A DNA stretch of 64,000 nt from a virus (IMGVR_UViG_3300011008_000003); one strand, 5' to 3'. Shown: positions 10,187 through 64,000, numbered from the stretch's first letter. Numbers and translations are program-made. Notes: a model not told the origin generated them from the sequence alone.

Positions 10187-10480
10187 TTATTTGCCAGTGT
10201 TGCCTTTGTCATTTAGAATATCCTCCACTGATGCCGCTTCCAATACAGAATGGAATGCTAAGACATCATCATTGGTTTCTATCTTGTATTGTTTTCCGTT
10301 TAGCGTCAACGGATTCATATGCGGATAAACCAGCACGATTTCCGTATTCTGCCGCTTGCTGAACAGGTCTTGATAGGTCGCCTTTATTTCGAATACTATA
10401 TTGCCTATATAGTTTGAATTCCGTATAGTATAGAGTTCAACTAAGGTATATTCACGGAAACTGTTTTTGAATTTAACCAT
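10187..10480 (-). CDS. Small protein, family A-like
   Basis: LTLNGKQYKI hairpin + C-terminal helix shared with 11.3-13.9 kb array. Confidence 0.7.
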   Translation of the reverse strand: MVKFKNSFREYTLVELYTIRNSNYIGNIVFEIKATYQDLFSKRQNTEIVLVYPHMNPLTLNGKQYKIETNDDVLAFHSVLEAASVEDILNDKGNTGK

Positions 10481-10787
10481 TAAGCGACTCCAGTACGTTT
10501 TCAGTTAAGCCGTTCTGGACGTCCTTGTAGAATTCATAAAGGACTTCATCAGATCGAATGTCGTAGTCCTTATTGCCGATACGCCAGATACCGTTAGTCT
10601 TATTGGTAAACCTGAATATAAAGGAAGTGGAACGGTCTCTCGTTTTTCTTTTCAGTTCTACCCCGATAGCATTATCCGGCAGTACCATGACGTCCAGAAC
10701 CTTATAGGTATAGTTAGGATCAGCATGCCAGCGATGATCATAACTGGAATAGTACAGTTGTTTAAGTATAAAGTCCTTACGTTTCAT
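10473..10787 (-). CDS. Small protein, family A-like, C-terminal tag
   Basis: WRIGNKDYDI...VLESLNG; GAGGT RBS. Confidence 0.75.
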   Translation of the reverse strand: MKRKDFILKQLYYSSYDHRWHADPNYTYKVLDVMVLPDNAIGVELKRKTRDRSTSFIFRFTNKTNGIWRIGNKDYDIRSDEVLYEFYKDVQNGLTENVLESLNG

Positions 10788-10790
10788 CGG

Positions 10791-11108
10791 TTACCTCGAT
10801 ACGTTATAACCCATTGCCGTCAGCTTTGCAATCATCTCCAGTGCATCATCAGAGTCATCGGAAATGAACCCTGCCTTTTCGAGATCCTCGTTGATGTCTT
10901 CCAGAGTCTTTATGGACAGAGCCAGAAGTTCATCGTAGTTACCGGACATCGCCAGCATTTGGTAGTTCTTCTTGTTGGCATCGGTGATCAACGCCGGTCG
11001 CTTGAACAGCTTGCCGCTTTCGTCGAACGCCCTGCAGACGTAACCCATGATGGAAAAGGCGTTTCCGTCACAGCCGACCAGAGTATATTTTTGAATTTTC
11101 TTAGCCAT
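10791..11108 (-). CDS. Conserved phage hypothetical protein (LVGxDGNAF motif)
   Basis: TLVGCDGNAFSIMG motif; promoter and GAGGT RBS. Confidence 0.8.
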   Translation of the reverse strand: MAKKIQKYTLVGCDGNAFSIMGYVCRAFDESGKLFKRPALITDANKKNYQMLAMSGNYDELLALSIKTLEDINEDLEKAGFISDDSDDALEMIAKLTAMGYNVSR

Positions 11109-11281
11109 ATTTATACCTCATAATATAATATAGAAAAACGTGCCGTTATTGTAAATGATTATAATATATCGAATCTCACCGGAACAACAGCATCGATAGG
11201 AACATGGTTCATGGCAGTACCGGTGATTATATGAATAAGGTTTATGTTTACTATATTATAATGTTTTACTATATTATAAGC

Positions 11282-11566
11282 ATGGAAGTTAAGATTAACA
11301 GGACAATTTACAAGACGGTGTATAATCCGATAAAGGTAAAACCGGACGGCAGTTTTACATTGCACGTTACCAAGTGGATAGAACGCCGTAAGGGAAATGG
11401 CTGGTCTGGTTATAGTAGATTTGCTGAATATGTAATTCCGCATCCGACAAGAATGACAATGGAATTCGACGGTAAAAAGTATAAGTGTAACGGTATGACT
11501 CCGGCAGAAGTCCTTGAACTGCGTAGTCACCTGGAAGCCTGTATAGCATTAGAGAACTTGAAATAA
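11282..11566 (+). CDS. Family A small protein (leaderless; start corrected from 11204)
   Basis: TATATT-N6-ATG; paralogue of 14822; ends IALENLK. Confidence 0.8.
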   Translation: MEVKINRTIYKTVYNPIKVKPDGSFTLHVTKWIERRKGNGWSGYSRFAEYVIPHPTRMTMEFDGKKYKCNGMTPAEVLELRSHLEACIALENLK

Positions 11567-11585
11567 TCATCGGTAAAGGTTAACT

Positions 11586-11849
11586 ATGAATGTAATTGGA
11601 TATAGATACCACGAAAACGACATGCATTATTTTATGCTGGATTTCCGCCGTGAATTTCAGGCGCGGGAATCTATGTTAAAAGTTCCGGTTATCAATAACG
11701 AGTATAAGAAGGAATATTTGTATCTTGAATCTGATACTTTTGATGTTGTCCTATATGATGGTCGTGAATATTGTTTGCTGAAACAAGAAGATTATGATGT
11801 TCTGAAAGAAATATTCTCTACACTTTTTGCGATAGAGAGTCTTAAATAA
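11586..11849 (+). CDS. Family A small protein
   Basis: LYDGREY...FAIESLK. Confidence 0.8.
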   Translation: MNVIGYRYHENDMHYFMLDFRREFQARESMLKVPVINNEYKKEYLYLESDTFDVVLYDGREYCLLKQEDYDVLKEIFSTLFAIESLK

Positions 11850-11864
11850 TTCTATATTAAGACT

Positions 11865-12131
11865 ATGTTGATAAGATGTCAAAAACATGGATTTATCCCG
11901 GTAATGTCTGATTTCGAAATTGATTTCGGCAGAAAACTTGGTGTGACTGAATCATTGATCGCTGTTCCAGTGATGCCTAATAAATTTAAGCTAAATCATT
12001 TGTTTCTGGTTCGTGGATTGTGTATTCCGGTAAGATTTGAAGGTAAAGATTTTAATCTCAATAATCCAGAACAGACAGGTATTCTGGAAGAAATGTTAAA
12101 GACAGTTTTTGCTATCGAAGACCTTAAATAA
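11865..12131 (+). CDS. Family A small protein (leaderless)
   Basis: 15-nt linker TTCTATATTAAGACT; RFEGKDF...FAIEDLK. Confidence 0.8.
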   Translation: MLIRCQKHGFIPVMSDFEIDFGRKLGVTESLIAVPVMPNKFKLNHLFLVRGLCIPVRFEGKDFNLNNPEQTGILEEMLKTVFAIEDLK

Positions 12132-12146
12132 TTCTATATTAAGTAT

Positions 12147-12455
12147 ATGAAAAAGTTTTTAATTGGTAAAGGTTATGACCGTTCGGCGTTGGTTTATGTC
12201 GAGGTAGATCTGTCGAGGAATACAGAGCTTACCGGTAACTTCATGATTCCGACAAAACAATCTATTCTCCGTGGCATCGGCAACGTTTATTATACGTCGC
12301 TGTCTCCCAACGATGAAGGCGGTGTAAGGCTGTACAGGTATGAAACTTATTATGTCAAGTGGAGAGGGAAGATATACCATGTGGACTCACCGGCGAAGTA
12401 TGATGTTCTGGTGAATATTATTAGCACAGATTTTGCCTTAGCCCAGCTCGAATAA
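12147..12455 (+). CDS. Family A small protein (leaderless)
   Basis: 15-nt linker; KWRGKIY...FALAQLE. Confidence 0.8.
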   Translation: MKKFLIGKGYDRSALVYVEVDLSRNTELTGNFMIPTKQSILRGIGNVYYTSLSPNDEGGVRLYRYETYYVKWRGKIYHVDSPAKYDVLVNIISTDFALAQLE

Positions 12456-12470
12456 TTCTATATTAAGAAT

Positions 12471-12743
12471 ATGAAACAGTTAATTATTATGTGGTCTAAC
12501 AACAGTGACAGGATGTCTGTGGAAAAGCTTGGTCCCTTGTGCATTTTTGCCGAAAGGAAGACTCCCTACTTTTATGTTAATGGCGAGCATTCATCGGTGA
12601 TCCGCATCTACCAAGGGGATTGTACCCGTACATACGAATTTGACGGCGTAGTCTATGATCCGATGTCCGCAGGCGATATTATGAATCTCTATTCGGCTTT
12701 GGAATTCTACCTTCTCGAAGTATCTCTTTGCGGGGTTCTATGA
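12471..12743 (+). CDS. Family A small protein (leaderless)
   Basis: 15-nt linker; EFDGVVY + helix. Confidence 0.8.
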   Translation: MKQLIIMWSNNSDRMSVEKLGPLCIFAERKTPYFYVNGEHSSVIRIYQGDCTRTYEFDGVVYDPMSAGDIMNLYSALEFYLLEVSLCGVL

Positions 12744-13009
12744 CTATAGAATTATCTTTTATGACTGGAATATTCGAGACCTATGAAATCTGTACTGGCG
12801 AACAGTACGGCAAGGTTGTCGATCATCTGGGTACCGATTGGTATATCTACGTTTATAACAGGCATCACATCCCTAATCTGGTTTGCCCTTGTACTGTTTT
12901 AAAATGTCGTTATCAAGGTGTAGAATTCGATACGCTGGGTAACAAAGACCAGCTGGCGATGCTGAAGAGAAAACTTGAAGAGGATTTCGCCATTGAACGA
13001 CTCGAATAA
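12740..13009 (+). CDS. Family A small protein (start corrected from 12728)
   Basis: ATGA overlap; close paralogue of 13025; ends DFAIERLE. Confidence 0.8.
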   Translation: MTIELSFMTGIFETYEICTGEQYGKVVDHLGTDWYIYVYNRHHIPNLVCPCTVLKCRYQGVEFDTLGNKDQLAMLKRKLEEDFAIERLE

Positions 13010-13024
13010 TTCTATATTAAGCAT

Positions 13025-13288
13025 ATGCAGATAGAACTTTCGTACCTACCGGGGAGATTCGACCGGTTTGATATTTGTCTGGATCTCGGTATCGAGGCAC
13101 GAAGCAAACGGCCTGAACGCTGGAGTCTTTTTATAAAGAACAACGAAGACATGATTATTAGGGTCTCTCCGATAAGCACGCTGTGTGTCAGGTATGAAGG
13201 GCATGTATATGATTCAGAGGACGACGATCAACTGGCGATTCTGAAACATAAACTTGAGACAGATTTTGCTATTGAACGACTCGAATAA
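13025..13288 (+). CDS. Family A small protein (leaderless)
   Basis: 15-nt linker; ends DFAIERLE. Confidence 0.8.
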   Translation: MQIELSYLPGRFDRFDICLDLGIEARSKRPERWSLFIKNNEDMIIRVSPISTLCVRYEGHVYDSEDDDQLAILKHKLETDFAIERLE

Positions 13289-13303
13289 TTCTATATTATA
13301 AGC

Positions 13304-13603
13304 ATGTGGCTTAAGATTGACAACGACAAGTATTGGGTTAAGGGCGTTACCAAAGAACGCGGAACCTATACTAATGAACTGATTGCCTGGGTACGGTGTA
13401 CTACAGGCCCTTGTTGTACTGTTCCGTTTAACATATATTTGCATATCGGAATTCAGGTTGCCTTTATCGATGAGGAAAACGATATGTGGGGTTGCGGAAT
13501 GTTCTACGGAGATCCCATTCATATACGTGACGAGATAACCTTGTTAAAAATTATAGATCGCATCGACAACGAAACTGCCCTTGAAAAGCTGGAGGCCTTA
13601 TGA
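13304..13603 (+). CDS. Family A-like small protein (leaderless)
   Basis: 15-nt linker; ends ALEKLEAL. Confidence 0.78.
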   Translation: MWLKIDNDKYWVKGVTKERGTYTNELIAWVRCTTGPCCTVPFNIYLHIGIQVAFIDEENDMWGCGMFYGDPIHIRDEITLLKIIDRIDNETALEKLEAL

Positions 13604-13881
13604 AAGTAATTCGTGGAATCGGAAAGAACCGATGTGTACGGACGATAGATTTTTCTCGCCCGCTTAAATACTATGATAATCCGGCCATATCTTGCGGTAA
13701 AGGTTTAGGCATTCCAGTAATAGAAAATCTTGATACTCCCAGCGAAGTTTATTTCTGGGACCATGAAACTATAAGGGCAACCGTCGGCAAGGACAGATAC
13801 GAATTGGTCGAGGATAATCCGTATGTCTATGAGCAGCTGAAGAATAATGTCGAGTTATTATTCGCCTTACATGGGCTTTAA
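13600..13881 (+). CDS. Family A small protein
   Basis: ATGA overlap, GGAGG RBS; ends FALHGL. Confidence 0.78.
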   Translation: MKVIRGIGKNRCVRTIDFSRPLKYYDNPAISCGKGLGIPVIENLDTPSEVYFWDHETIRATVGKDRYELVEDNPYVYEQLKNNVELLFALHGL

Positions 13882-13899
13882 TAATTCTATATTATAGTC

Positions 13900-14349
13900 A
13901 TGGATATTAAAGACGTTTACAAACAACTTCAAAATCATTTTGAGCAGATTAAGTTAAAATACGGCTATCTGCAGAACGATAACGGTTTTAATTTTAGAGG
14001 CGGTGTCTTTTCCGGTAGTATTGCCGGTGGTACCGTTGAAGATGAAGAACCGGATGAAAAGTCTACCGTATTCGAATCCTTCGTTATCAACAAAACCCAT
14101 CGTAAGACACATGATGTTATTTTTTATGTGCAAGCCAAGATTTTATATTACGGCGCCAATTGCGGTATCTTTTCCAATAAGTACATGTATTCCCTTACTA
14201 CTTATCGGAAAGACCGCAAGATTGACCATTTCTATACACAAGAAAAATTATTAAACGAGTTCGACCGAATCTTTAAAGCTGAATACAAACGTGCTGTGCG
14301 GATGAACCAGCAAAAACTCGTTAAACAAATCAACTCCCTCCCTGGTTAA
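13900..14349 (+). CDS. Family B protein (leaderless)
   Basis: TATATT-N6-ATG; ends QINSLPG. Confidence 0.8.
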   Translation: MDIKDVYKQLQNHFEQIKLKYGYLQNDNGFNFRGGVFSGSIAGGTVEDEEPDEKSTVFESFVINKTHRKTHDVIFYVQAKILYYGANCGIFSNKYMYSLTTYRKDRKIDHFYTQEKLLNEFDRIFKAEYKRAVRMNQQKLVKQINSLPG

Positions 14350-14377
14350 ACATTTCTATATTATAGTCGAGGTTATT

Positions 14378-14785
14378 ATGTTCTATGAAAAGAAAATACA
14401 TGAACTGGAATTGATGGCGGGAGCTTACAGGTATTTGGAAGAGCTGGGAAAGAAGTATACTGCGAAATATAAAAGCTTCGATACCTACAGGTTTACCGTT
14501 GACCCCTGTGCTTACAATATATCCATTCCCGAGTTAGACATTACATTTACCCGGTGCGAAGATATAACTATGGTTTTCCGATTAAAGTGTATTATTAAAT
14601 ATACGGAAAATAAATTCCATTATGAAATATGCCATTTCAATCATAAGGAAGACAGTGATTTTAACTGCAAGAATGAAGATGATATGATAGAGCAGTTTGA
14701 AAAGCTTCTTAAAGCAGACTGTAAGTATGTCATGCAGCAAGTCCAGAAAAAAACTTTTAAGGCAATTAACTCTCTTGCGGGTTAA
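14378..14785 (+). CDS. Family B protein
   Basis: -10 box + GAGGT RBS; ends AINSLAG. Confidence 0.8.
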   Translation: MFYEKKIHELELMAGAYRYLEELGKKYTAKYKSFDTYRFTVDPCAYNISIPELDITFTRCEDITMVFRLKCIIKYTENKFHYEICHFNHKEDSDFNCKNEDDMIEQFEKLLKADCKYVMQQVQKKTFKAINSLAG

Positions 14786-14821: not shown

Positions 14822-15127
14822 ATGCCGTATTTCAAAATCAATGCTGACAAAGAAGCATATAAGCTTTCCACTATTGAAAAGCGAGGAGACCAATATTTAA
14901 TCCATGCGACACGCTGGGAACAGCATTGGAGAAATAACTATTTCGGACTTGGCCGTAAGGTTCTGAGAGGTCGTGATGAGCATTACAATTTTTATGTTCC
15001 GTCTCCGAAAAAGAAGCTGGACATCCATGTCGACAATGAAACTTATGTCTGTAAGAAAGCCGACAAGATGACTGTGGAACGTCTGGTAAATCATCTTAAA
15101 ACTTTAACAGATTTAGAAGTTCTATAA
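14822..15127 (+). CDS. Family A small protein
   Basis: Paralogue of 11282 (LIHATRW vs TLHVTKW); ends DLEVL. Confidence 0.8.
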   Translation: MPYFKINADKEAYKLSTIEKRGDQYLIHATRWEQHWRNNYFGLGRKVLRGRDEHYNFYVPSPKKKLDIHVDNETYVCKKADKMTVERLVNHLKTLTDLEVL

Positions 15128-16050: not shown

Positions 16051-17031
16051 ATGGCATGTATTACGATTACTAATCAGTTTGACCCGTCGCTTCAGATGCG
16101 GATTGACGATAAAAAGGAATTCGATCTCGGTTCTACGGCAGACTTCACCGACAATAAGATGCTCCCCGTTATCAAGAAGACGATCGCCGATATGGTGCCG
16201 GAAGCACAGTTAAGAGTATCGACTAACTATGAAGCTTGGACGCGGTTTTTCTGTTATACCATGGAATTCAAGGTATTCTATAAAGGTGTCAACGACAACG
16301 AGGATGGCTTTAAGATTAAGGTGGAATTCACTAAGGGTCAGAACTGCGACAAGTACAAGATTGGGTTCGAAGTACCAGTTGTAAACCGTGGTTGGAGAGA
16401 TGCTCTGCTTCCGAACAAGGCTAAGGCATACCGTACTAAGGCTAACTATGCCTCGAGCTCTGATCAGCGTCTGATGTTCTATGATCCGTCTGAGGAAACT
16501 ATTAAGGGATTCCTCAATGCGATGATTACCCCGAACCGCCGCAAGGCTCTCCAGGAATTCATCAAAACTGCCAAAAAAGATGCGATGGAGAGTGCCAACA
16601 CAAAGAACCTGTTGGATATTGAGACCATGGACGTCATTCCGGAACTTGAAACAATCTGCCGTAAGTATTCCATGGGTAAACCGGACATCGTGGAGGAAGC
16701 CTATTGCCGTAAGGTAGTCTTTATTAGCGGCGAATACGGTACCAAGTTCTATCTGAACCTGTTCAAGGAATACATGGCGTTTGATATGACAAAGGGCGCT
16801 GAGTATGTATGCAACAAGTTCGATACCAACTTTATCAGGTTGCTGAAAGGCTTCTTTGCAAATTCCAATTTCGACATTGCCACTCATATCCCGTACGACA
16901 AGAAAGAACAGGTATTCGATATATTAACGCGTATCGGGAATATCTACCAGAAGACCCTTTTCCTTGTGAACTACGAAGCCTGGTATAACGTCGATCCGAT
17001 GTGGAAGCGTAATCCGAAAAACGAGGAGTAA
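16051..17031 (+). CDS. Hypothetical protein
   Basis: Promoter + AAGAGGT RBS, 326 aa. Confidence 0.85.
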   Translation: MACITITNQFDPSLQMRIDDKKEFDLGSTADFTDNKMLPVIKKTIADMVPEAQLRVSTNYEAWTRFFCYTMEFKVFYKGVNDNEDGFKIKVEFTKGQNCDKYKIGFEVPVVNRGWRDALLPNKAKAYRTKANYASSSDQRLMFYDPSEETIKGFLNAMITPNRRKALQEFIKTAKKDAMESANTKNLLDIETMDVIPELETICRKYSMGKPDIVEEAYCRKVVFISGEYGTKFYLNLFKEYMAFDMTKGAEYVCNKFDTNFIRLLKGFFANSNFDIATHIPYDKKEQVFDILTRIGNIYQKTLFLVNYEAWYNVDPMWKRNPKNEE

Positions 17032-17112
17032 TTCCGATAGAAATCTAATTAAGCGACTTGTTGACAAGACAAGTCGTTTTTTCTATATTAAGAGTATAAA
17101 AGAGAGGCTATT

Positions 17113-19107: not shown

Positions 19108-19446
19108 ATGAACAGATACTTACCTATTAAGATTGATACTTGCAGCCATGAGTATATGATAGACCTGTGCGGCAATACCTGGACAGACAGCGGATTGCCT
19201 GTAAGTAATATAACCAAATGGAAACTGAATGACAAACCGGTAGTGTTTCGCCTGCATATCTGCGAGTTAATGAAAGCCGGCGACAAAGATATTCGGATTT
19301 TATCGGAATATGCCTTCTGCACAGGTAAGAAGGTTACTGTAGACTTTATGGGTAAAACGTATCATCCGGGTGACAGTGACTTTGAACTGATAAAGCTGCA
19401 TGATGCATTAGAAACCGAAATTGCCCTGGCAAGACTGGAGTTATAA
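19108..19446 (+). CDS. Family A small protein (leaderless)
   Basis: TTTACA-N17-TATATT-N6-ATG; DFMGKTY...IALARLEL. Confidence 0.8.
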   Translation: MNRYLPIKIDTCSHEYMIDLCGNTWTDSGLPVSNITKWKLNDKPVVFRLHICELMKAGDKDIRILSEYAFCTGKKVTVDFMGKTYHPGDSDFELIKLHDALETEIALARLEL

Positions 19447-19724
19447 TGACAATATCAACGAAAAGCGGCATCTTTGGCGACTGGTATGACTATGAAGTAA
19501 TACTGCCGTCCAACTTTATTATCTTTAAAGACCATTTTGGTTATGAGGGATTCAATATTGCGGTGAAAGCCGATGACGGATATAACTATGCGTTACGTAT
19601 CATCCAGGCAAATCTGATGCAGGTAAAATATAAAGACCAAACTTATGACATGAGGAAACCGAAAGAATATATGACGCTGAAGAGCATCCTTGAAGCCGAT
19701 ATTGTCCTGGCAAGTCTGGACTAA
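19446..19724 (+). CDS. Family A small protein
   Basis: TAATG coupling; KYKDQTY...IVLASLD. Confidence 0.8.
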   Translation: MTISTKSGIFGDWYDYEVILPSNFIIFKDHFGYEGFNIAVKADDGYNYALRIIQANLMQVKYKDQTYDMRKPKEYMTLKSILEADIVLASLD

Positions 19725-19787: not shown

Positions 19788-20444
19788 ATGACTAAGATTA
19801 GACCATGTGACAAACTGACAATCACCGACATCCAGACTTCCATTAAGCAGAAGGCCGTTGCGTTCGATGCGCTTGCCGAGCTTATTAAGACTTTCCCGGC
19901 TCAAGATATGCTGACATGCAAGTTGTCACATATGGACGATCCGACAAAGGAACTTATGGCGAACTGCAAGTACCGCATTCCGTTCCATATGAGGGAATCC
20001 CAGTTTATGGAAAGCAAGGGACTCGGCATGGGTTACAGGTTACTCGACACCATTCCGGCTGCAATTGACCCGGAAAGCCACTATACCATTAACATTGAGA
20101 TCGTCTGTAAGAAAGCTGGCGGTTATTCCGTTAAGTTAAAGAATGTCTGCGACTATATCTATTCGCGAATCCGTCGTAAAGAAGGCAATACTGAATTTAA
20201 GAATTATCTTAATACGGCAACCTATGAACAGGTTGGACAGGATTCTGTTTCCGCCATTATCCACCGTGAAATAAAGGGCTGTGCCAGAAAGGCATCGGCT
20301 GTCAAGCATGCGACGAGGAACGTCGAATGGCTCAGGGCTGGTCTGGCTGAACTGATTCCTGCAATGTTGGAAGACAGTCTGTATAAGACCGAACAGGCCA
20401 TGTACAATATGTCGACCGATAAGGTCTTGGGTGTTCTGAAATAA
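19788..20444 (+). CDS. Hypothetical protein, paralogue of 20513
   Basis: YRIPFHMRESQF vs YCLPFNLNDTRF; ends VLGVLK. Confidence 0.85.
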   Translation: MTKIRPCDKLTITDIQTSIKQKAVAFDALAELIKTFPAQDMLTCKLSHMDDPTKELMANCKYRIPFHMRESQFMESKGLGMGYRLLDTIPAAIDPESHYTINIEIVCKKAGGYSVKLKNVCDYIYSRIRRKEGNTEFKNYLNTATYEQVGQDSVSAIIHREIKGCARKASAVKHATRNVEWLRAGLAELIPAMLEDSLYKTEQAMYNMSTDKVLGVLK

Positions 20445-20512
20445 AAATTAAGAATAAATCGGGCTTATATTAAGCCCGGTTTTTCTATATTGTATTAAAA
20501 CAAGAGGATATT

Positions 20513-21142
20513 ATGATAAATTCAAGTTTAACGCTCGATGAAGCATTCCGAATTCACAAGAAACAGCTGGATCACCTTGATGCGGCTCTGGCAAAGATTA
20601 AGGAATTTCCGTTAAGCCAGTATCTGCACGTAGGTTTCGACTCAGGGCTCGCCAAGGCCACCACGTTCGTCTATAACCTTGAATACTGTTTGCCGTTCAA
20701 TTTGAACGATACCAGATTCTACGGTTATTCGAAGGATTCCAAGGTCAACATCGACGTGCCGACGAGTTGGGTTAAGGATCACCTGTTCTGCAAGCATCCG
20801 GTGATAACGATGGCATTTAAGCTCACATACCGTTCCGATAAGGATCAGTGGAGCATTAAGTGTTCGCACGTCTATGCGACGACAACCTGCAAAGACAAAT
20901 ATAACGACTATTCCGTTGCCGTTAATCATGAATATTCGACGGTCGCTGAAGCAAACCGAGTGATTGGCTGGGGTGGCGACGCGAGAAATAAGAGTGCTGT
21001 GAACAGGAAATCCGACGATGTGGGTTTTTATATTAAGCTGTTCCAGATGCTGCTGCCGTTCCTGATGAATGACAATCTTATGGGTGTACGAAGCATTCTG
21101 TCCGACGCAGCGAACACCAAAGCATTAAATTCATTAAGGTAA
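20513..21142 (+). CDS. Hypothetical protein, paralogue of 19788
   Basis: Promoter + RBS; ends ALNSLR. Confidence 0.85.
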   Translation: MINSSLTLDEAFRIHKKQLDHLDAALAKIKEFPLSQYLHVGFDSGLAKATTFVYNLEYCLPFNLNDTRFYGYSKDSKVNIDVPTSWVKDHLFCKHPVITMAFKLTYRSDKDQWSIKCSHVYATTTCKDKYNDYSVAVNHEYSTVAEANRVIGWGGDARNKSAVNRKSDDVGFYIKLFQMLLPFLMNDNLMGVRSILSDAANTKALNSLR

Positions 21143-24371: not shown

Positions 24372-24707
24372 ATGCTTAAAGAAAAACGTTATAAAATCGA
24401 AATTGACACAGCATCTCCGGCCGTGAGCGTGCTGAAAGACGTCCCGTATCACAGGCTGTGGGAATTCCTGCGGGCGCACCCAGAGTACAAGAAGTACGCG
24501 GATGTTAACTGCAGCCGTCCGATCTATGTGTACAAGAAGTGCAAAGTCGGAACAACAGCATTGTGGAAACTCGTAGATGCACTGACATATTCGATGAGCG
24601 GTTGCCCGACTAACATCCGCCGCGATGCCAAAGACCTTAAGCGTAATTACGGTGTCAACATAGCCACCGACATGTACAAGTATCTGAGCCTGGAAGTTCT
24701 GAAGTAA
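24372..24707 (+). CDS. Hypothetical protein (leaderless; start corrected from 24321)
   Basis: TTTACA-N17-TATATT-N6-ATG; ends SLEVLK. Confidence 0.78.
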   Translation: MLKEKRYKIEIDTASPAVSVLKDVPYHRLWEFLRAHPEYKKYADVNCSRPIYVYKKCKVGTTALWKLVDALTYSMSGCPTNIRRDAKDLKRNYGVNIATDMYKYLSLEVLK

Positions 24708-28169: not shown

Positions 28170-28562
28170 ATGAAAGAATCTGATATGGAAATCGTTAAGA
28201 ACATGACGGACGCCAAGCTCATCGTCGCAATCCGTGATGCTGTTCCGGACGCCAAGGACACGATGCGTGCCCAGGACATCTGTAACAAGAAGCGTTACGC
28301 CGAAGACCGTTCGATGCTTGCCAACAAGCAGTTGAAGGCGATTACCGACACTTCGAAGTTCTACCGTCGAGCCAAGGCGTTTCTGTTAAAGGAAATCGAC
28401 ATCAAGCTCAACGACACCATCTTCTACAAGTGCAATACCATCAACGCAAAGAACTTCATCAGTTCAATGAAGCAGATGGTCAAAGCCAACCGTGAAACCA
28501 TGGAGGCTCTGGACGCGTTGAATTGCCGCGTTCAGAGGTCAAAGAATACGGTAGCAATATGA
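28170..28562 (+). CDS. Hypothetical protein
   Basis: TTGACA promoter, GGAGG RBS. Confidence 0.82.
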   Translation: MKESDMEIVKNMTDAKLIVAIRDAVPDAKDTMRAQDICNKKRYAEDRSMLANKQLKAITDTSKFYRRAKAFLLKEIDIKLNDTIFYKCNTINAKNFISSMKQMVKANRETMEALDALNCRVQRSKNTVAI

Positions 28563-30090: not shown

Positions 30091-30174
30091 GGCCTTGTGG
30101 CGGAATAGGTAGACGCTGCAGACTTAAAATCTGTTGGGAGATTTCCCGTGTCGGTTCGAGTCCGACCTTGGTCA
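30091..30174 (+). tRNA. tRNA-Leu(TAA)
   Basis: GTGGCGGAATAGGTAGACGC D-arm, GCAGA-CTTAAAA-TCTGT anticodon arm, long variable arm, GGTTCGAGTCC; two U-U mismatches in acceptor stem; no CCA. Confidence 0.88.
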
Positions 30175-30294: not shown

Positions 30295-30597
30295 ATGATG
30301 GAAATGAATAAGAAAATAAAAATTGTCTACAAGGATAGCTTGTCTGGTGAAACCAACGAACGCGAGATAAAGCTCCGGAACATCCTGGACCTTATGAAAC
30401 ATACGGGATTCAGTGAACTATACTTCTGGAACAATTATGTTGGCAGACTGGCCAAGATAATGATCTTCGATGATAAACTGGTTAAATGGTTTGACAAGGA
30501 AGGTGTTGAACATACCGACTACGAGAAGCTGGTAGATACGTTGTCGGTTTACGCCGAACAGACGAAACTAAAAGATGCCCTGGCAAGTCTGAATTAA
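30295..30597 (+). CDS. Hypothetical protein (leaderless), C-terminal tag
   Basis: TATATT-N6-ATG; ends ALASLN. Confidence 0.8.
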   Translation: MMEMNKKIKIVYKDSLSGETNEREIKLRNILDLMKHTGFSELYFWNNYVGRLAKIMIFDDKLVKWFDKEGVEHTDYEKLVDTLSVYAEQTKLKDALASLN

Positions 30598-30667
30598 AAC
30601 TCAATTAGATTTTGATTTACAAGACTTTTAGAATTTTCTATATTATAGTCATGCAAGAGAGGTTAAA

Positions 30668-31338: not shown

Positions 31339-31659
31339 ATGGCTGGTTATCCGATGAGTAACATTACCATGAAGATGGATGAGATTAACAAACATCTTTA
31401 TGATACTTGTTACATGATGGATGCTGTCTGGAGCGACTTCTATGGGATAAATCACAACAAGAATGGAAAGGTTCATATCAGGTTACTGACTGGGCCTGCA
31501 CCCGGATGGTTCGATGCTGTCACGTGGACAATAGACATCGACGACATCACCGCAGGGAGACTCGACCTGAAACTGCAGGAAATAGTCAAATTCGGCGATA
31601 ACTGGAAACAGCGTCTGATAGGACTCGACACGGAATATGCGATAGAAAACTTGCAATAA
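31339..31659 (+). CDS. Hypothetical protein, C-terminal tag
   Basis: Ends YAIENLQ. Confidence 0.75.
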   Translation: MAGYPMSNITMKMDEINKHLYDTCYMMDAVWSDFYGINHNKNGKVHIRLLTGPAPGWFDAVTWTIDIDDITAGRLDLKLQEIVKFGDNWKQRLIGLDTEYAIENLQ

Positions 31660-32950: not shown

Positions 32951-33112
32951 ATGGACAAGGCTAAAGAAACGAAAAGGATGCGTGATGAAAGGATCAAAGA
33001 ATCCGAAAACGGACGAAAGCTCCGCGAACGAAAAATCCGTGACCGAACAAAGTACACCCGAAAAGGGCGGACACGTCCTGACGATAACGAAGAGAGATAC
33101 GTACAGCGGTAA
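32951..33112 (+). CDS. 53-aa very basic peptide, ArfA-reminiscent
   Basis: AGAGGTTATT-ATG; RKLRERKIRDRTKYTRKGR; not in ORF track. Confidence 0.65.
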   Translation: MDKAKETKRMRDERIKESENGRKLRERKIRDRTKYTRKGRTRPDDNEERYVQR

Positions 33113-33347
33113 CACCAGCTTCAGTGTCAACCTTTATATCCAGGATGTGGAACAGGTCGAACCGTACGAATGGGACCATACCCAGCTCGTCGTGCACTAC
33201 AGATCCATCGGCGGCGTATTCGGCGAAATCCGTATTACGGACGAAGACGATTACAAGGTCGACGGCAGGACCGCAACGTATGAAATCGCTCAACTGTTCC
33301 TCGAGAACCGTTTGACCGAAGTTCAAATCGATGCGCTTCCGGGATAA
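32982..33347 (+). CDS. Family A-like protein, true start uncertain (probably near 33078)
   Basis: YKVDGRTA...QIDALPG; 5' part overlaps the 32951 ORF. Confidence 0.6.
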   Translation: MMKGSKNPKTDESSANEKSVTEQSTPEKGGHVLTITKRDTYSGNTSFSVNLYIQDVEQVEPYEWDHTQLVVHYRSIGGVFGEIRITDEDDYKVDGRTATYEIAQLFLENRLTEVQIDALPG

Positions 33348-34061: not shown

Positions 34062-34448
34062 ATGATTAGAGAAGACATTGATATTGAAAATATCGCGAAT
34101 ACCCTGGGATTACCGTTCTACGAGGACAAGGACTGGAAATGTATCGTAATCGGGGAAGCCGACTGGGATAACACCGGGAACGATATGGAATTGGTCCTGA
34201 AATACCGTCACGGACCGTACAACAACGAATGGAAACGTACAGGGATTACTGAAGACGAACTCTTTGTTATGATTAAACAGACCGTTGCTGGAGCGTTGTC
34301 CTTGTCAGGTATTATGACCAACGAAAAGGCTTTCACCTTCATCGTGGGACTGTTGCTTGTCAAGAAAGATATTAAGGCATGGCGGGCCAACTACATGGCT
34401 GCGGAATACAACCGTGAACTTGAAAAGACCCTGGCAGCTCTGAAATAA
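34062..34448 (+). CDS. Hypothetical protein, C-terminal tag
   Basis: Promoter + RBS; ends TLAALK. Confidence 0.8.
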   Translation: MIREDIDIENIANTLGLPFYEDKDWKCIVIGEADWDNTGNDMELVLKYRHGPYNNEWKRTGITEDELFVMIKQTVAGALSLSGIMTNEKAFTFIVGLLLVKKDIKAWRANYMAAEYNRELEKTLAALK

Positions 34449-34900: not shown

Positions 34901-34974
34901 GGACAGGTAGCTCAATAGGTTAGAGCAGCGGACTCATAACCCGCCGGTTCTCGGTTCAAGTCCGAGCCTGTCCA
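34901..34974 (+). tRNA. tRNA with CAT anticodon (non-initiator; probably Ile2, possibly elongator Met)
   Basis: GGACAGG/CCTGTCC acceptor, TAGCTCAATAGGTTAGAGC, CT-CAT-AA loop, GGTTCAAGTCC; G1-C72 paired; own promoter. Confidence 0.9.
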
Positions 34975-36890: not shown

Positions 36891-36977
36891 GATTCACCGA
36901 TAAAAAAGATTAAAGACTAGAAGTTTACAACTTCTGGTCTTTTTTCTATATTTAGAATATAAACAAGAGGTTATAAA

Positions 36978-39146: not shown

Positions 39147-39551
39147 ATGGGAAAATTCGTTCTTAAGGTTTATCGTGTATGGTATGACTGGTGGACAAAG
39201 GAATATAAAAAGCCAGACCTTGACTTTGCATGGCCGATTGTCGACAGCATCAAGCTCGAGAACGTAGACTTCAATGACAGTTTTCATTTGAAATTCATAA
39301 TGGACGACTGGGGTGATAAGGAAAAATACCTGGGCTTTCCTAACCACATGCCCTGTGAAAACACGGGTATATATGACGGCGCAAACTGCAAACAGGTTAT
39401 TTCTTTTCATGACGAAAGGAATAAGGTCTTGACCCAGTTAGTAATCGACGAACGCCCGGGAAAGGAAAAACTCATTGAAGAAGTCAGGCCCTGGATAGAG
39501 CTCTATCTTGCTCATTACAAGAAGATTGCATGCCTGGCAGATCTGGCGTAA
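39147..39551 (+). CDS. Hypothetical protein, C-terminal tag
   Basis: Ends CLADLA. Confidence 0.8.
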   Translation: MGKFVLKVYRVWYDWWTKEYKKPDLDFAWPIVDSIKLENVDFNDSFHLKFIMDDWGDKEKYLGFPNHMPCENTGIYDGANCKQVISFHDERNKVLTQLVIDERPGKEKLIEEVRPWIELYLAHYKKIACLADLA

Positions 39552-40739: not shown

Positions 40740-41072
40740 ATGAGTGTTTTACGAGTATTTTTTGAACCTGACCCGAACCTTCCGGACGATATTCTGTTCG
40801 AAGTGAAATACATGTACGTTGACCGTTCTGACCCCAGTCGAGTCATGCTCAAGTCTGCATGGGCGGGTCTAACCGATAGTTCTAACCTGAACATGAAGGG
40901 GGTCAATGCGATTCGTTACGGTTTCGCGAAGACTAAAGACGAAGCCTATGCAGAAAAGTTCTACATCGAAAAGGAATTGAAAACAGACGAAGACTTTGCT
41001 GAGTTCTACCGTACCTATGAATACGAACGTCACAACGACGAAGTTGAACGAACCCTGAAGACACTGGATTAA
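40740..41072 (+). CDS. Hypothetical protein (leaderless), C-terminal tag
   Basis: TATCTT-N6-ATG; ends TLKTLD. Confidence 0.78.
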   Translation: MSVLRVFFEPDPNLPDDILFEVKYMYVDRSDPSRVMLKSAWAGLTDSSNLNMKGVNAIRYGFAKTKDEAYAEKFYIEKELKTDEDFAEFYRTYEYERHNDEVERTLKTLD

Positions 41073-44435: not shown

Positions 44436-45059
44436 ATGATTGCATCTGAACTGACTAATCCGAGCATCGTCAAAGTATCTAAGTCTGACGCAAATTACTT
44501 CTGGTACGGAAAGGAAAAGTTCCAGTTCACTGGTAGGTTTTCTACTAACGATGCCGAAATACGACACATCGAATCGGGAGTTGAATCCTATATCCTGCGT
44601 GAGTCTGCTGTCTACAAAGAAATTAGTACTCAATGGGAAACAATCGGTGCAGAAAAGTCTGCAAAGTCCAGGGCGAAGCGTGAAGCAAAGAAAAAGATGC
44701 TTCTCGAACTCGCGAAAGATTCTAACATGACTGCAATCGAATGGAGGATTAAGCTTCTCAAGGAACATAGCCTGCTCCTCACCTCGAGACCGTACGGACA
44801 CGATTACGAAGTCTACAAGTGCAATGTCAAGTGGAACGATTCGTTCCTGGTCACTTTGTCGACAGGCAAGCAGAACCTCGATGTAAAGAGGATTAAGAAG
44901 TTTTGCGACTCGAAGAAGATTACTAACGCCGACCCGTATCACAGATTCAACGATATAACCATTAAGGAGGTACTGGACAAGGTTATTCGAATTCAAAGAA
45001 AGGAAATGGACCAGAGAGAGAACGAAACCATTAAGGCTATCGAGTCTCTCGCGGGATAA
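44436..45059 (+). CDS. Hypothetical protein, C-terminal tag
   Basis: Ends AIESLAG. Confidence 0.83.
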   Translation: MIASELTNPSIVKVSKSDANYFWYGKEKFQFTGRFSTNDAEIRHIESGVESYILRESAVYKEISTQWETIGAEKSAKSRAKREAKKKMLLELAKDSNMTAIEWRIKLLKEHSLLLTSRPYGHDYEVYKCNVKWNDSFLVTLSTGKQNLDVKRIKKFCDSKKITNADPYHRFNDITIKEVLDKVIRIQRKEMDQRENETIKAIESLAG

Positions 45060-45412: not shown

Positions 45413-45542
45413 GTTCAAAGTCTACAAGAAAGAAAACGGAAAGGCGAATCCTGTACTTGAAACAGTCGATTACGAAGAAGCATGCAGAAAGGAGAAGGAA
45501 TTAAAGGATAAAGGGTTCGAATCATTCGTCTGGCAAGTCTGA
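45402..45542 (+). CDS. 46-aa hypothetical protein
   Basis: GAGG RBS, overlaps upstream stop. Confidence 0.65.
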   Translation: MNRKFKVYKKENGKANPVLETVDYEEACRKEKELKDKGFESFVWQV

Positions 45543-45644
45543 TGAAAAATAATCAAATGTTTTAGTTTACAAGTCTATTGGATTTTTCTATATTTTAATC
45601 GTTCGCTAGAACATTTAGTTTAACTTAAACCGAAGAGGTCCAAT

Positions 45645-48000: not shown

Positions 48001-48086
48001 CTCTTCCGTTGAAAAAACTCGATTTGAACTAGTTTACAAGACTAGTTCATTTTTCTATATTTTTGTCAAACAAACAAGAGGTTAAT

Positions 48087-48551: not shown

Positions 48552-48653
48552 GCGAAACATCGTCGGGAGCAATCCCGGCGAAAAAATCTTCAATTTTTAT
48601 GTTTACGATTCATATTGATTTTTCTATATTTTAGTCAAACAAAAGAGGTTAAT

Positions 48654-57303: not shown

Positions 57304-57306
57304 GGC

Positions 57307-59325: not shown

Positions 59326-59436
59326 TCAAATATTTTAGTTTACAACTTTGTCTAGATTTTCTATATTTTAATCGTTGCAAGTCATAATCGAATGATTAAC
59401 GACTGCAGCGAATCCGATAACAACAAGAGGTCCAAA

Positions 59437-59754: not shown

Positions 59755-59918
59755 TCCAAGTTGAAGAAATCCGGAATGTCGTGAGATATACCGATGATTT
59801 TTTTAATAATGTTTTAGTTTACAACTTAATTAGAATTTTCTATATTTAAATCGTTGCAAGTTATAATTGAATGATTATTCAACTTGCTGCAATTCCAAAC
59901 TAAACCAAAGAGGTCCAA

Positions 59919-60200: not shown

Positions 60201-60467
60201 GGGACTTCTGTCCTACCTGCGGGGTTCGGTGACCTTCGGGAGATCCGAATCTTTCAGTCGGGCCAATCTGGGTTGCAGGCCAGTCCGACGACAGTCCCAA
60301 GACGGACCGGGAGTACCCTAGGGGAAACCGGTTCTTTATTGCTTTTCCGATAGATTTTTTTATAATGTTTATATTTACGACTTTGATTAGATTTTCTATA
60401 TTTTAGTTGTGCGAGTGATAATTGATTGATTAGTCACTCGCGGAAATTCCAAATCAAAGAGGTCCAA

Positions 60468-60815
60468 ATGGTTACTTTCAAGTCTATCAACGAAATCCAG
60501 TCTGCAATTCGTGCCAAGATCACGAGCAATTCCGAAGCAGCTATCAAGGCGATGATGAAAATCTACGCGAACCAGACGGAAGATGAACAGGATGCCGAAG
60601 CCACAAGGCACCGTAACAATGTCGGTTTCAACGGCACGGACGCCGAAATTCTGAGCAGCTTCTCGAAGCAGTACCAGAAGCGTGGCTTCCTGAGCCCGAA
60701 GCAGAACGCCATCCTGATGAAGAAAATCGGGAAGTATGCAGGTCAGCTGACCAAGCAGGCGATCGCCAACAAGATGTACGTGAAGACCGGCGACGTCTGG
60801 ATCGTCAACAAATAG
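60468..60815 (+). CDS. Conserved phage hypothetical protein (QTxDEQ...NxVGF...D...LSxKQ...KYxxQL)
   Basis: Motif; promoter, leader hairpin, RBS; start corrected. Confidence 0.82.
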   Translation: MVTFKSINEIQSAIRAKITSNSEAAIKAMMKIYANQTEDEQDAEATRHRNNVGFNGTDAEILSSFSKQYQKRGFLSPKQNAILMKKIGKYAGQLTKQAIANKMYVKTGDVWIVNK

Positions 60816-60985
60816 GTTTCTGGACCTCCTGCGGGTCGCTCCGGTATCGGGGCGATTCCGCTTATTTTTTTATATTTTATCTTGTTTACAAGTTTATTAT
60901 AATTTTTTATATTTTAATTGAACAAGTGATAATTAAATAATTATTTACTTGCTGAAACTCCAAACAAAATCAAAGAGGTCCAATT

Positions 60986-61363
60986 ATGATGAAAGCCAAC
61001 AAGATTGAAGACATCCGCCGCATCTACACCAAGTACGAAGGCGTTCCGTGCAAGATCGAAGCAGACCGTACGAAGCAGGTCGTTTCTGTCGAATACAACT
61101 GGACTGGCGACGATAATGCTCGCCGTTGCTTCGTCGCCTACGCTTGTGTGAATGGTGATCCAGATCGTTTCTGCATGTCTGAATACGCGAATTCCGACCA
61201 CGATGAAAACTGGAACTGCGATGTAACCGTTAGCTTCTACGGGAATCTGAACAACGACCAGGAGATTCTGGATTTGGTCGAAAGCTTGCTGATGAACTTC
61301 TTCAAGGCTGAACGAGCAATGAAGGTCTTCAGTAAGCTTGAGAAAGCTGGACTCGTCAAGTAG
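60986..61363 (+). CDS. Hypothetical protein
   Basis: Promoter, leader hairpin, RBS. Confidence 0.8.
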   Translation: MMKANKIEDIRRIYTKYEGVPCKIEADRTKQVVSVEYNWTGDDNARRCFVAYACVNGDPDRFCMSEYANSDHDENWNCDVTVSFYGNLNNDQEILDLVESLLMNFFKAERAMKVFSKLEKAGLVK

Positions 61364-61369
61364 TTCCGA

Positions 61370-61870
61370 CATACCAGCTGACAGTCCGTTTGACACGTCA
61401 GATGTCAGATAGGCTGTCAGTTTGCTGCGTTTTATGACGGCTTTTACGACGTTATTTGGGCATAACGTCAGCTTTCGCGACGTGCCAAATGACGCCCCGG
61501 TAGGCCTATTTTAGGCTGGTATGCCGACGCCCCAGTGCGTGAAAAAACGGGCAGGCGGGCTCCAAAAAAATGTGCTAAGGCGAGCCTATAGGGTTAACCC
61601 CCCGGCCCGGGGGCCCAGGTCTCCTATGGGCGGGCTTTTTGCGTGCGTGTCTTTCTCTTAAAAAAAATTTTTTCCGGGAAATTTTTTCTGGGCTATCTAC
61701 TGGCGGGCAGATATGGCGGGCGGCAATCGGGACATATATCGGGACACAATGTCTTGATTATTATATAGTTTTTTCGTATCGAGACATTTCTACCCCCGCC
61801 CGGGCTTATTTTTGAAAAAGGCTCATTTTGAAAAATTTTTTATAGAAAAATTTTAATCCTATATATGAAA
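61370..61870. other. Non-coding, repeat- and palindrome-rich segment near the transcription-direction switch (candidate origin/terminus/packaging region)
   Basis: GACG and GCGGGC repeats, CCCCCCGGCCCGGGGG, A8/T6 tracts, no ORF. Confidence 0.45.
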
Positions 61871-61902
61871 ACGGGCTTACGTTCCTTTCTTATTTTACTA
61901 TA

Positions 61903-62217
61903 TTGCGAAATAAGATAAGTAGAGAAGAGTTAGATAGCTTACAGCAGTATCTGAAACATAATGCCGTGGCTGATTTATACAGTTCGGACTGGTATTCAAT
62001 AAATGGCTTGGAAATAAGTATCGACCTTGATTGCGTATATGTATACCTGATGCGTGACAAATGGCTGATAGCGTGTACCAAGGCCGGGTGTGGTCTGAGC
62101 AGTGATAACCCGCATAAGGTTATTGTACTTGATTTCGACAGATTGATGCGGTTAATCGACGGCGGCGAGATGGCTTATAATAATATGGAGACCGAGTGGA
62201 TCCTGAATGAGCTGTGA
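61903..62217 (+). CDS. Hypothetical protein, C-terminal tag; start uncertain
   Basis: Promoter upstream; ends WILNEL. Confidence 0.6.
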   Translation: MRNKISREELDSLQQYLKHNAVADLYSSDWYSINGLEISIDLDCVYVYLMRDKWLIACTKAGCGLSSDNPHKVIVLDFDRLMRLIDGGEMAYNNMETEWILNEL

Positions 62218-62218
62218 T

Positions 62219-62692
62219 TTACGGCAATTCATCTATGTATTCTTCTATCATACGGTTTTCCATAGCCAGTTTTTCTTTTAATATATCCCTGTATGTATCG
62301 GAAGACAAGAAGTTCTTTCTGAGTTCGTTCATGAATATTACGAGTTTTTCCGGGTTATCGTTCGGGTGTTTGAGGCGTAATACGGAGAGCGGAATGCCGT
62401 CGGACGGCTGGGAAGTATTATTTACATAGATTTTTATCAGGTATATGGTATCGTTTTTACGTAATAACGACTGTCCTTTTACCATGAAGCATAGGATTTT
62501 GCTGTTTAGCGGGCTGACGACGCCGAGGCACGCTATGAGGCATTCACCGTCTACTGGGGATATGCGGGAGCTGTACTGGTGGAAATTGTCGCCTATACTG
62601 TTTCCGAATATTTTAACGGCCTGGTTGTCCGCCAGGTCCAGTTCGTGTTTATATTTTTCCTGTTTCAGCTTATATTTCTTTTCGTAGTTCAT
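62219..62692 (-). CDS. Family B protein
   Basis: Similar to 62689; ends YIDELP. Confidence 0.8.
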   Translation of the reverse strand: MNYEKKYKLKQEKYKHELDLADNQAVKIFGNSIGDNFHQYSSRISPVDGECLIACLGVVSPLNSKILCFMVKGQSLLRKNDTIYLIKIYVNNTSQPSDGIPLSVLRLKHPNDNPEKLVIFMNELRKNFLSSDTYRDILKEKLAMENRMIEEYIDELP

Positions 62693-63198
62693 GGCAGGGA
62701 ATCCAGGAGTTTCTTGGTCTTGTAGTTCTGTCTCTGCAGTATTTTCTTTTTCAGCTTTACGAACCCGGTATTCATGTATTCACTTCTGTATTTTTCCATT
62801 TTATTCAGGAGTTCCGTTACGGAACCTGCCTGGTCTATATACTGGTAATCCGGATCGTAGCCGACGGAAGAGCAGAGGCCGTTCGAGCCGATCGGGCCGT
62901 ATGTCATGTGCGGGTGTTCTTTCTGAGGATCCCTGATTCTGTAGATTCTGTTTGTTGTATATTCTTCCAGCAGGATTTCGCCTATGACACGCCAGCACAG
63001 ATTGGCTGGTTTAGTCGGGTGGGCTATGCCAAGCGATATTTCTATGCCTTTTTCTTTATTTGACGAGACATAGGATGAGAATATATGGAAATCGTCATGG
63101 AATTTGTCTCCATACAGTTTATGCGCAATATGTTCGGCTACGGCGAGGTCGGGCATCAGTTCTTTAACTTTTTTGGTATATTCCAGGTATTTACTCAT
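62689..63198 (-). CDS. Family B protein
   Basis: ATGA coupling; ends LLDSLP. Confidence 0.82.
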   Translation of the reverse strand: MSKYLEYTKKVKELMPDLAVAEHIAHKLYGDKFHDDFHIFSSYVSSNKEKGIEISLGIAHPTKPANLCWRVIGEILLEEYTTNRIYRIRDPQKEHPHMTYGPIGSNGLCSSVGYDPDYQYIDQAGSVTELLNKMEKYRSEYMNTGFVKLKKKILQRQNYKTKKLLDSLP

Positions 63199-63482
63199 TC
63201 TAGGATCTCCAGTGCGGTCTTGGTGAGTTCATTGTTCAGTTCCAGCATGAATTTATGTTCGTTTTTCTTTATTTCCTCGTAGTTGTATTGTTTTTCGCCG
63301 AGCTGGATATAGCAATACCTGCGTGTCGCACTCTGGTCGAACCAGATAACGTCTTTTTTGCTGCCGTCGAACCAGAACTCAATCCTATATTTCAGTACAT
63401 CAAATACGGTAACTCTACTGAATAATATGTCGGTAATATTCCTGTAGGTTGTGCCGTAGAGGTTGTCATATATGATAATCAT
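63195..63482 (-). CDS. Family A small protein
   Basis: IQLGEKQYNY...ALEILE. Confidence 0.8.
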   Translation of the reverse strand: MIIIYDNLYGTTYRNITDILFSRVTVFDVLKYRIEFWFDGSKKDVIWFDQSATRRYCYIQLGEKQYNYEEIKKNEHKFMLELNNELTKTALEILE

Positions 63483-63866
63483 TATAGAACCTCCAGAATT
63501 TCTTTGAGTTCCTGTTTCTTGGCTTTCTTGAACTGGCGTCTTACGAATTCTTGTCTTTTTTCTTCCATTTTATCAAGGAGCTTGTCTACCGTAGAGAAAT
63601 ATACGGGTTTTCTATTAAGACAGGTTTTCGATAGGGTCTTGTCGAATACGATTAACATTTCATGTGGTTCTTTATCTCCGTCGTAGAAAGTCAGGCGTGC
63701 TTCCCAAAGGACATTGTACATTTTATCGTACCCATGCGGTCGAGTGGTCATAATTGGACCAGTGTTCAAGTGTAAAAGTATAGTCGTCGAACTCGCACCA
63801 ACGGGAACACTTCTCCAGTCGTGCTTTCATTTTCTTGTTGACTGCTGCGTAATTGTTATTGTTCAT
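63482..63866 (-). pseudogene. Family B gene apparently split by a 1-nt frameshift (63866-63723 and 63721-63482)
   Basis: Two coupled ORFs whose summed length approaches the family size; ends ILEVL. Confidence 0.45.
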
Positions 63867-64000
63867 GGTAGGGAATCGATAATCTGTTCTATTGCGGTAT
63901 TACAAAGCTTTAAATAGTCACCTTTGATAAATTCAAGGCGGTATTCTTCCATTTTGCGCATCATGCCGGCCAATGTCTGAGCACATGGGTAATATTCTTC
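63863..64000 (-). CDS. Family B protein, 3' part (runs off window edge)
   Basis: MMRKMEEYRLEFIKG...IIDSLP. Confidence 0.78.
   Translation of the reverse strand, partial: EEYYPCAQTLAGMMRKMEEYRLEFIKGDYLKLCNTAIEQIIDSLP

Follow-up and report, generated by a model that had tools for sequence, protein, structure and literature searches.

Why do some thirty proteins that appear unrelated to one another end in the same short peptide? The question is raised by a 64,000-nucleotide (nt) stretch of viral DNA, IMGVR_UViG_3300011008_000003 (hereafter the window), which comes from an uncultured T4-like jumbo phage and covers part of its genome; among its genes are those for ThyA, an Mre11-like protein (gp47), a Rad50-like protein (gp46), GroEL, a MoxR-type AAA+ protein and a VWA/metallopeptidase-like protein. 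An original prediction, made from the sequence, had listed 30 open reading frames (ORFs) whose products end in [IL]xxL, zero to two further residues and the stop, and had read this ending as a shared helical tag for sorting or docking, recognised by one receptor. All 30 tails are present in the sequence as they were listed. The best explanation overall, which we put forward tentatively, is a helical tail maintained at the peptide level, possibly as a shared handle, and partly double-coded with promoter DNA.

Is the ending more than chance? The pattern [IL]..L.{0,2}$ was scored on independent gene calls (119 window genes), with the expectation taken from its rate at internal positions. It closes 31 of these genes against 3.8 expected (binomial p 1e-19), and it matches 39 of 645 (6%) non-gene ORFs of at least 40 codons; when detectable paralogues were collapsed, about 17 independent carrier units stood against about 3.3 expected. 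A 12-position tail matrix was also trained on tails from a relative alone (G002, a complete 411-kilobase (kb) genome with 592 genes) and applied to the window, so that no window data were reused. It gave 20 terminal hits of at least 10 bits against 0.44 expected, and 6 internal hits among about 14,700 positions. In G002 itself 78 of the 592 genes have the tail, against 20.8 expected. Strong terminal enrichment combined with few internal matches establishes the motif as a real and specifically terminal feature, as the original prediction had anticipated, and both window results rule out chance as its main cause. By the same matrix, the matches in gene 57307 (a membrane protein) and in the weak 10039 are probably fortuitous.

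The motif is longer than was first described. Its consensus is N-x2-[T/V]-[E/K]-x-A-[I/L]-[E/D/N]-x-L, followed usually by K/E/D/N, P-G, A-G or nothing. Among the 21 window carriers outside family A (a paralogue family of ten, discussed below), position -7 is N in 10 (p 6e-8), position -4 is T in 9 (p 7e-7), position +2 is S in 8 and position -1 is A in 6; in the G002 carriers, A is found at -1 in 31/78 (p 8e-19), T at -4 in 21/78 (p 4e-9) and N at -7 in 18/78. Usually 0-2 residues trail the tail, with 3-8 extra in some orthologues and 13 in gene 28170. Recognition through a free carboxyl end is unlikely, since the motif tolerates 0-8 trailing residues. Carriers account for about 30 of the 119 genes in the window (about a quarter) and about 78 of 592 in G002. 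They are small (about 60-220 amino acids (aa)), fast-evolving accessory genes, mostly behind their own sigma70-like promoter in cassettes of the promoter early stem-loop (PeSL) type. The carriers of the window, with one tail-less copy, are as follows.

10473-10787, minus strand: carrier ending ..LTENVLESLNG, promoter absent downstream
11282-11566, plus strand: family A gene ending ..CIALENLK, placed by an iterated hidden Markov model; orthologue Leu codons TTA/TTG/CTG
11586-13288, plus strand: tandem family A genes 11586, 11865, 12147, 12740 and 13025, tails F-A-[IL]-x-x-L-[KE], TTCTATATT directly after each stop
12471-12743, plus strand: degenerate family A copy in the tandem, tail-less, ending ..EVSLCGVL and overlapping the next gene
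13304-13603, plus strand: singleton carrier ending ..NETALEKLEAL (11.7 bits)
13600-13881, plus strand: family A gene ending ..LLFALHGL, placed by an iterated hidden Markov model
13900-14785, plus strand: family B1 genes 13900 and 14378, tails INSLPG and INSLAG
14822-15127, plus strand: family A gene ending ..TLTDLEVL
19108-19724, plus strand: family A genes 19108 and 19446; the tail codons CTG GCA AGN CTG are the promoter box
19788-21142, plus strand: family C genes 19788 (218 aa) and 20513 (209 aa), tails VLGVLK and ALNSLR
24372-24707, plus strand: carrier ending ..SLEVLK
28170-28562, plus strand: ..ETMEALDALN and 13 extra residues (stop lost); orthologues end directly after the tail
30295-30597, plus strand: carrier ending ..DALASLN, stop 38 nt 5' of the -10 element (17.9 bits)
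31339-31659, plus strand: carrier ending ..DTEYAIENLQ
32985-33347, plus strand: carrier ending ..VQIDALPG, the CCG of the box translated as Pro
34062-34448, plus strand: carrier ending ..EKTLAALK, stop 38 nt 5' of the -10 element
39147-39551, plus strand: carrier ending ..IACLADLA, stop 38 nt 5' of the -10 element
40740-41072, plus strand: carrier ending ..ERTLKTLD, stop 39 nt 5' of the -10 element
44436-45059, plus strand: carrier of 207 aa ending ..KAIESLAG
61903-62217, plus strand: carrier ending ..METEWILNEL
62219-64000, minus strand: overlap-coupled run of 62219 (YIDELP), 62689 (LLDSLP), 63195 (ALEILE), 63482 (ILEVL) and 63863 (IIDSLP), no promoter motif between them; 63863 is partial at the window end and terminates in ..NTAIEQIIDSLP

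As originally claimed, the tail occurs on several families and on singletons, on both strands and with different Leu codons, and ThyA, gp46, gp47, GroEL and the VWA protein lack it. Relatives of this phage in IMG/VR are contigs of 230-415 kb whose Rad50-like protein is 51-59% identical, and closer relatives (72-96% protein identity) are frequent in ENA and Logan assemblies. G002 carries UvsX and a split family B polymerase, which together with Rad50/Mre11 are markers of the T4-like clade. Cultured phage records gave no match to a megablast of 9 kb or to a tblastn of two carriers.

What is conserved here, the peptide or the DNA that encodes it? Comparison of orthologues shows that purifying selection acts on the tail peptide. 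The Leu codons of the tails interchange among TTA, TTG, CTG, CTC, CTT and CTA. Carriers diverge faster than non-carriers (about 80% versus 90% identity), and their last 8 residues are 90% identical versus 80% overall, the corresponding values for non-carriers being 91% and 90%. Across the 74 population homologues compared with 44436, it is the x positions of the tail that vary, its A, I, L and G being near-invariant. The DNA-level account, in which the tail is merely the translated 5' edge of a PeSL-like cassette or a recombination linker, homogenised by recombination and with no role as a peptide, seems to us highly improbable, and its case comes from the promoters of the window.

These promoters are numerous. 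TTCTATATT has 131 matches at one mismatch or fewer in the window versus 25 expected, and TTTACA-N17-TTCTATATT is present in about 90 copies. From an alignment of 71 promoter copies we derived the consensus TTTACA-N17-TATATT, an A-tract at -41..-37 and an upstream box, gGcaatTCCGataAaAAA, at -54..-37, in which each of G -53, C -47 and G -45 is found at 53-59 of the aligned sites. The box has the form G-N5-C[C/T]G-N3-AAAA(A) (e.g., 16966-16985); this phage and its near relatives show it strongly, and G002 lacks it. Stop codons cluster 23-53 nt upstream of the promoters, in the A-rich region, and in 12 genes the stop lies 38-40 nt upstream of the -10 element, a register that makes C[C/T]G a Leu or Pro codon and places TAA within the A-tract. 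The final Leu codon is CTG in all genes stopping at this distance, as against 26% of Leu codons in general, and CTG GCA AGT CTG (L-A-S-L) is identical to the box consensus. For the 8-10 carriers that stop exactly 38-39 nt before the -10 element the ending is double-coded: C[C/T]G at -47..-45 of the box supplies the final Leu and the TAA of the A-tract supplies the stop. The original prediction had noted that the last CTG/CCG codon doubles as a promoter box near -60, and this overlap turned out to be stronger than it was stated to be. Two sites illustrate it.

30580-30644, plus strand: PeSL-like cassette in which the box CTGGCAAGTCTGAATTAAAA (-56..-37) encodes L-A-S-L-N-stop in frame, and TTTACA, 17 nt of spacer and TTCTATATT come next
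45513-45545, plus strand: the box DNA CTGGCAAGTCTGA in another reading frame, giving ..FVWQV-stop

Because the box DNA at 45.5 kb is read in another frame, the box is a DNA element in its own right. A sigma54-like reading of CTGGCA-N-CTG was dropped since the TTGC element is absent, and in the tandem family TTTGCNAT was considered as a MotA box but dropped since its spacing is wrong. By eye, an inverted repeat covers the -35 element or the spacer, with a T-run merging into TTTTCTATATT, at promoters 17081, 27200, 36944, 48053 and 20483. Composite cassettes with a GC-rich inverted repeat are seen, for example, at 17040-17089, 36900-36952 and 48010-48061, and one such stretch probably serves both as terminator of the upstream gene and as promoter of the next. 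Some box sites have their CCG in a hairpin, as its 3' arm; the hairpin at 48560-48600, for example, has a GCAA loop. A tRNA-Leu(TAA) (30091-30174) and a tRNA-Met(CAT) (34901-34974) each lie 3' of a window promoter.

Such an arrangement resembles the PeSLs of T4-type phages, which are intergenic promoter/terminator cassettes that mediate shuffling (PMC2839356, PMC4122927). The likeness extends to the roughly 90 sigma70-like promoters, the A-rich upstream region with its upstream stop, the stem-loops in or beside the spacer, and the position of the cassettes, which flank small ORFans in plastic regions where indels and mosaic breakpoints coincide with cassettes. Gene content at the cassette sites differs among the window and two related contigs, L015 and L017. 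Compared with its L015 counterpart, gene 24372 lacks 68 codons through an in-frame deletion whose edge falls precisely at the last six codons, leaving these and the promoter in place; in its L017 copy (L017:14514-14957) a 1-nt frameshift brings an early stop, and the untranslated tail DNA and the promoter are unchanged. The bodies of 13900 and 14378 are 51-62% identical to those in L017 and their tail-plus-promoter DNA is almost identical, which points to mosaic breakpoints at the cassettes. These cases, along with the shuffling known for PeSLs, the box itself and the uniform CTG of the carriers that stop 38-39 nt before the -10 element, speak for a roleless by-product of cassette DNA.

Several facts are at odds with it as a general account. 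The majority of carriers lie away from the box position, the tail codons differ and switch synonymously even within the box (CTG to CTA between orthologues of 19788), and the recurrent N at -7 and T at -4 are outside the box. In G002, which has the promoter but no conserved box, the tail is equally strong on its 78 carriers, 54 of which have no promoter within 150 nt. The box therefore cannot be the general cause, and the promoter box alone was ruled out as the main one. As a general explanation the by-product account is largely refuted; it holds only for the final Leu-x-stop of genes stopping 38-39 nt before the -10 element. The overlap with promoters is genuine, but it plays a secondary part. 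What differs from PeSLs as described is that the upstream box is translated in frame, forming the last codons of 8-10 genes, and a conserved protein tail on the ORFans flanked by PeSLs is not a described property of these elements.

The original prediction had also argued that promoters could not account for the tails of two coupled operons. Its case holds in part: the minus-strand genes at 62.2-63.8 kb are indeed overlap-coupled, but those at 11.6-13.9 kb are no operon, each having its own TTCTATATT 0-4 nt after the preceding stop. The latter genes look leaderless, because the ATG follows a further 6-8 nt on; from 11586 to 14349 the ATG stands 6-8 nt past TTCTATATT, and both a Shine-Dalgarno sequence and an upstream -35 match are absent. 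The argument against the promoter thus rested on a misreading there, although its outcome stands in that paralogy, and not the box, explains the tails of those genes.

Does paralogy then explain the remainder? Iterated profiles place ten carriers in family A (11282, 11586, 11865, 12147, 12740, 13025, 13600, 14822, 19108 and 19446), which the degenerate 12471 joins, and smaller families are B1 (13900, 14378), B2 (62219, 62689, 63482) and C (19788, 20513). A database protein, P0022, fuses an 11282-like N-terminus to a 12471-type C-terminus, and this chimera suggests recombination among tandem family A copies. With the tails stripped, the proteins of the window and G002 form 598 clusters, 87 of which hold a carrier against 24.7 expected, and this rules out paralogy alone as the main cause. 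A family A profile of 34 sequences, run with and without tails against all other carriers, gave only E above 0.25, and hhalign of family A with B1 and with C gave probabilities below 1%. Twenty carriers compared with Pfam and PHROGs returned nothing significant. In agreement with the original prediction, the carriers do not form one detectable family.

What, then, does the tail look like in a folded protein? The AlphaFold2 model of 19446, with a predicted local distance difference test (pLDDT) score of 95.8, has seven strands (residues 2-68) and one helix (72-91), and the tail forms residues 84-91 of this continuous helix at pLDDT 86-98. In an exhaustive structural comparison (VIA-align) the top rows were all PH-like, with weak scores (Z 4-5.6); Foldseek against the PDB gave no match at E 0.001 or better for the model of family A or of family C, and a search of the ESM Atlas returned weak rows alone. 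The model and the PH-like matches suggest that family A is a PH-like beta-sandwich whose 20-residue capping helix, part of the fold itself, ends in the tail. Family A, and only family A, is like the PH-like superfold (PH, Ran-binding, EVH1, TFIIH Tfb1 PH, Rpn13 Pru) in having seven antiparallel strands and one C-terminal amphipathic helix, but it differs in that the scores are weak and a sequence relation is absent. It is also a narrow family, with just 27 representatives among 1.84 billion proteins, and the tail is terminal in all of them. The model of family C (pLDDT 75) is different: its N-terminal part is a cystatin-like domain and its C-terminal part a three-helix bundle, with the tail on the last of the three helices. 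Both models bear out the helical nature first proposed, the tail being predicted to form the last two turns of a C-terminal alpha-helix. A free tag is at variance with the high-confidence model, in which the tail belongs to the capping helix. The differing models put the tail on at least two predicted architectures (two families were modelled), and the heads fall into many clusters unrelated in sequence.

The family A model suggests a quite different account, namely that the helix is structural only. All or most carriers would then trace back to ancient families of small domains, one or a few in number (e.g., a PH-like sandwich), whose bodies diverged past recognition and whose helix was kept for the fold, with no common receptor. 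We consider this a serious possibility, second to the explanation given at the outset. It agrees with the confidently modelled capping helix of family A and its uniformly PH-like matches, with the similar size of most carriers and with their rapid evolution, and by eye several singletons show a G-x-x-Y hairpin followed by a helix. When written as a regular expression, however, that hairpin shows no enrichment among the carriers that lie outside family A (3/20 versus 9/76, p 0.7). The failure of profile and profile-profile comparison to link the families and the different architecture predicted for family C also speak against it, and constraint from the fold alone would not predict the recurrence, in one cluster after another, of N at -7 and T at -4. 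The helix of family A has, furthermore, two conserved faces about 180 degrees apart. One of them (Y75/L78/L82/F86) presumably packs on the sandwich; the other (T84/A87/L88/L91), which is the tail motif, has small residues at i and i+3 beside Leu and would resemble a helix-helix contact surface.

Short terminal peptides that gather different proteins are known from other systems, and the tail might be one of these: a clamp-binding epitope, a protease-adaptor or degron tail, or a capsid- or cargo-loading peptide. We regard this as unlikely. The phage clade is T4-like, and [IL]-x-x-L-x-G resembles such short tails in form. In encapsulin cargo-loading peptides and in the T4 capsid-targeting sequence, a short terminal peptide sends diverse proteins to one destination, and an SspB-like ClpX-tethering tail reads L-x-x-V-K-COOH. 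The encapsulin and T4 capsid peptides, however, mark late or packaged proteins near shell genes, whereas the carriers look early by promoter type, with no capsid link seen; they sit in early-type promoter cassettes outside the structural module, and the G002 carriers are concentrated at 18-28 kb and 340-411 kb, apart from the large structural genes at 220-320 kb. The present tail also differs from the known ones in being helical and continuous with the fold, in lacking a flexible linker and in tolerating trailing residues, as described above.

The closest parallel in T4 itself is the set of highly similar, interchangeable C-terminal epitopes by which the otherwise unrelated gp43, gp55 and gp33 bind the sliding clamp, so that one hub serves them all (PMC2988020). 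The likeness lies in a short conserved C-terminal peptide common to unrelated proteins of a T4-type phage. The T4 epitopes, though, are found on three proteins, are hydrophobic and acidic with aromatics and follow a flexible linker, whereas here dozens of proteins have an aliphatic, helical ending continuous with the fold. The G002 polymerase is encoded by two adjacent genes (735 and 358 aa; L025:5625-8910, equal to G002 85625-88910), and its C-terminal piece (L025:7834-8910), which matches residues 698-790 of T4-type polymerases, ends in ..ERPTMFEFFS, aromatic and acidic like clamp tails of the T4 family and unlike the tail studied here. This ..TMFEFFS end is likely a clamp-binding tail, and since the polymerase of the relative ends in it, clamp binding by the tail of the carriers is unlikely; the polymerase of the window phage itself is encoded outside the window.

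Other resemblances are looser. T4-type phages have small non-essential early proteins of dissimilar sequence that are grouped solely by predicted structure, a likeness in kind, but their constant element is an N-terminal barrel with a variable C-terminal part, whereas in the present proteins it is the C-terminal helix, with everything else variable. On the 230-kb contig of a different relative (L001:16527-21468, minus strand), a paralogue family of about eight genes has another shared C-terminal motif, all members ending in P-x-V-P-K-G-[IL]-L-x-I-P-x-x-I; the tail studied here seems to be absent from L001. Among the open-access literature we found no paper describing a shared C-terminal motif on phage early proteins.

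Our tentative explanation, a helical tail kept as a peptide, would work as follows. The constant helix would close the protein's own small domain, and its conserved T/A/[IL]/L face would form a common helix-packing surface that a shared partner, or other carriers, may bind. Many variable heads would thereby share one handle, and in this lineage, where a gene runs into the next promoter cassette, its last codons would also serve the promoter. A bolder version makes the helix end an address or docking tag for one hub, of the phage or of the host, that would plug 60+ unrelated, fast-turnover early effector heads into one machine; with the DNA of the tag woven into the PeSL cassettes that shuffle heads, a captured ORF would gain promoter and tag together. 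To us this version is conceivable but rather doubtful, and a purely structural reading is about as likely as a single shared partner.

A number of observations weigh against a shared handle. No partner, receptor or hub turned up for the tail. A structural role alone would also explain the conservation, because the tail continues the capping helix in the only high-confidence model, and [IL]xxL-x-G is common as a cap for any terminal amphipathic helix. Small phage proteins diverge fast, so that the heads called unrelated may be unrecognisable relatives; carriers are mostly about 90-135 aa, and many of those near 100 aa may be such relatives of family A. Gene 14378 of family B1 has a weak PH1_SSRP1-like Pfam match (E 0.007), which also favours a structural helix. 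The family C model is of moderate quality, with its final 8 residues at pLDDT 54. The conserved tail DNA beside the diverged bodies of 13900 and 14378 would fit recombination breakpoints as well as it fits selection on the peptide.

A constant helix on a tenth to a quarter of the phage genes offers an entry point to the accessory ORFans of jumbo phages, in that a common partner might be captured with a single bait peptide and all the carriers can be listed by a single motif search. Should the tail prove to be a docking tag, it would represent a new organising principle for the host-takeover proteins of phages and would link protein modularity to PeSL cassettes. If it is structural only, it defines a very large, fast-diversifying family together with a clear overlap of protein and promoter codes.

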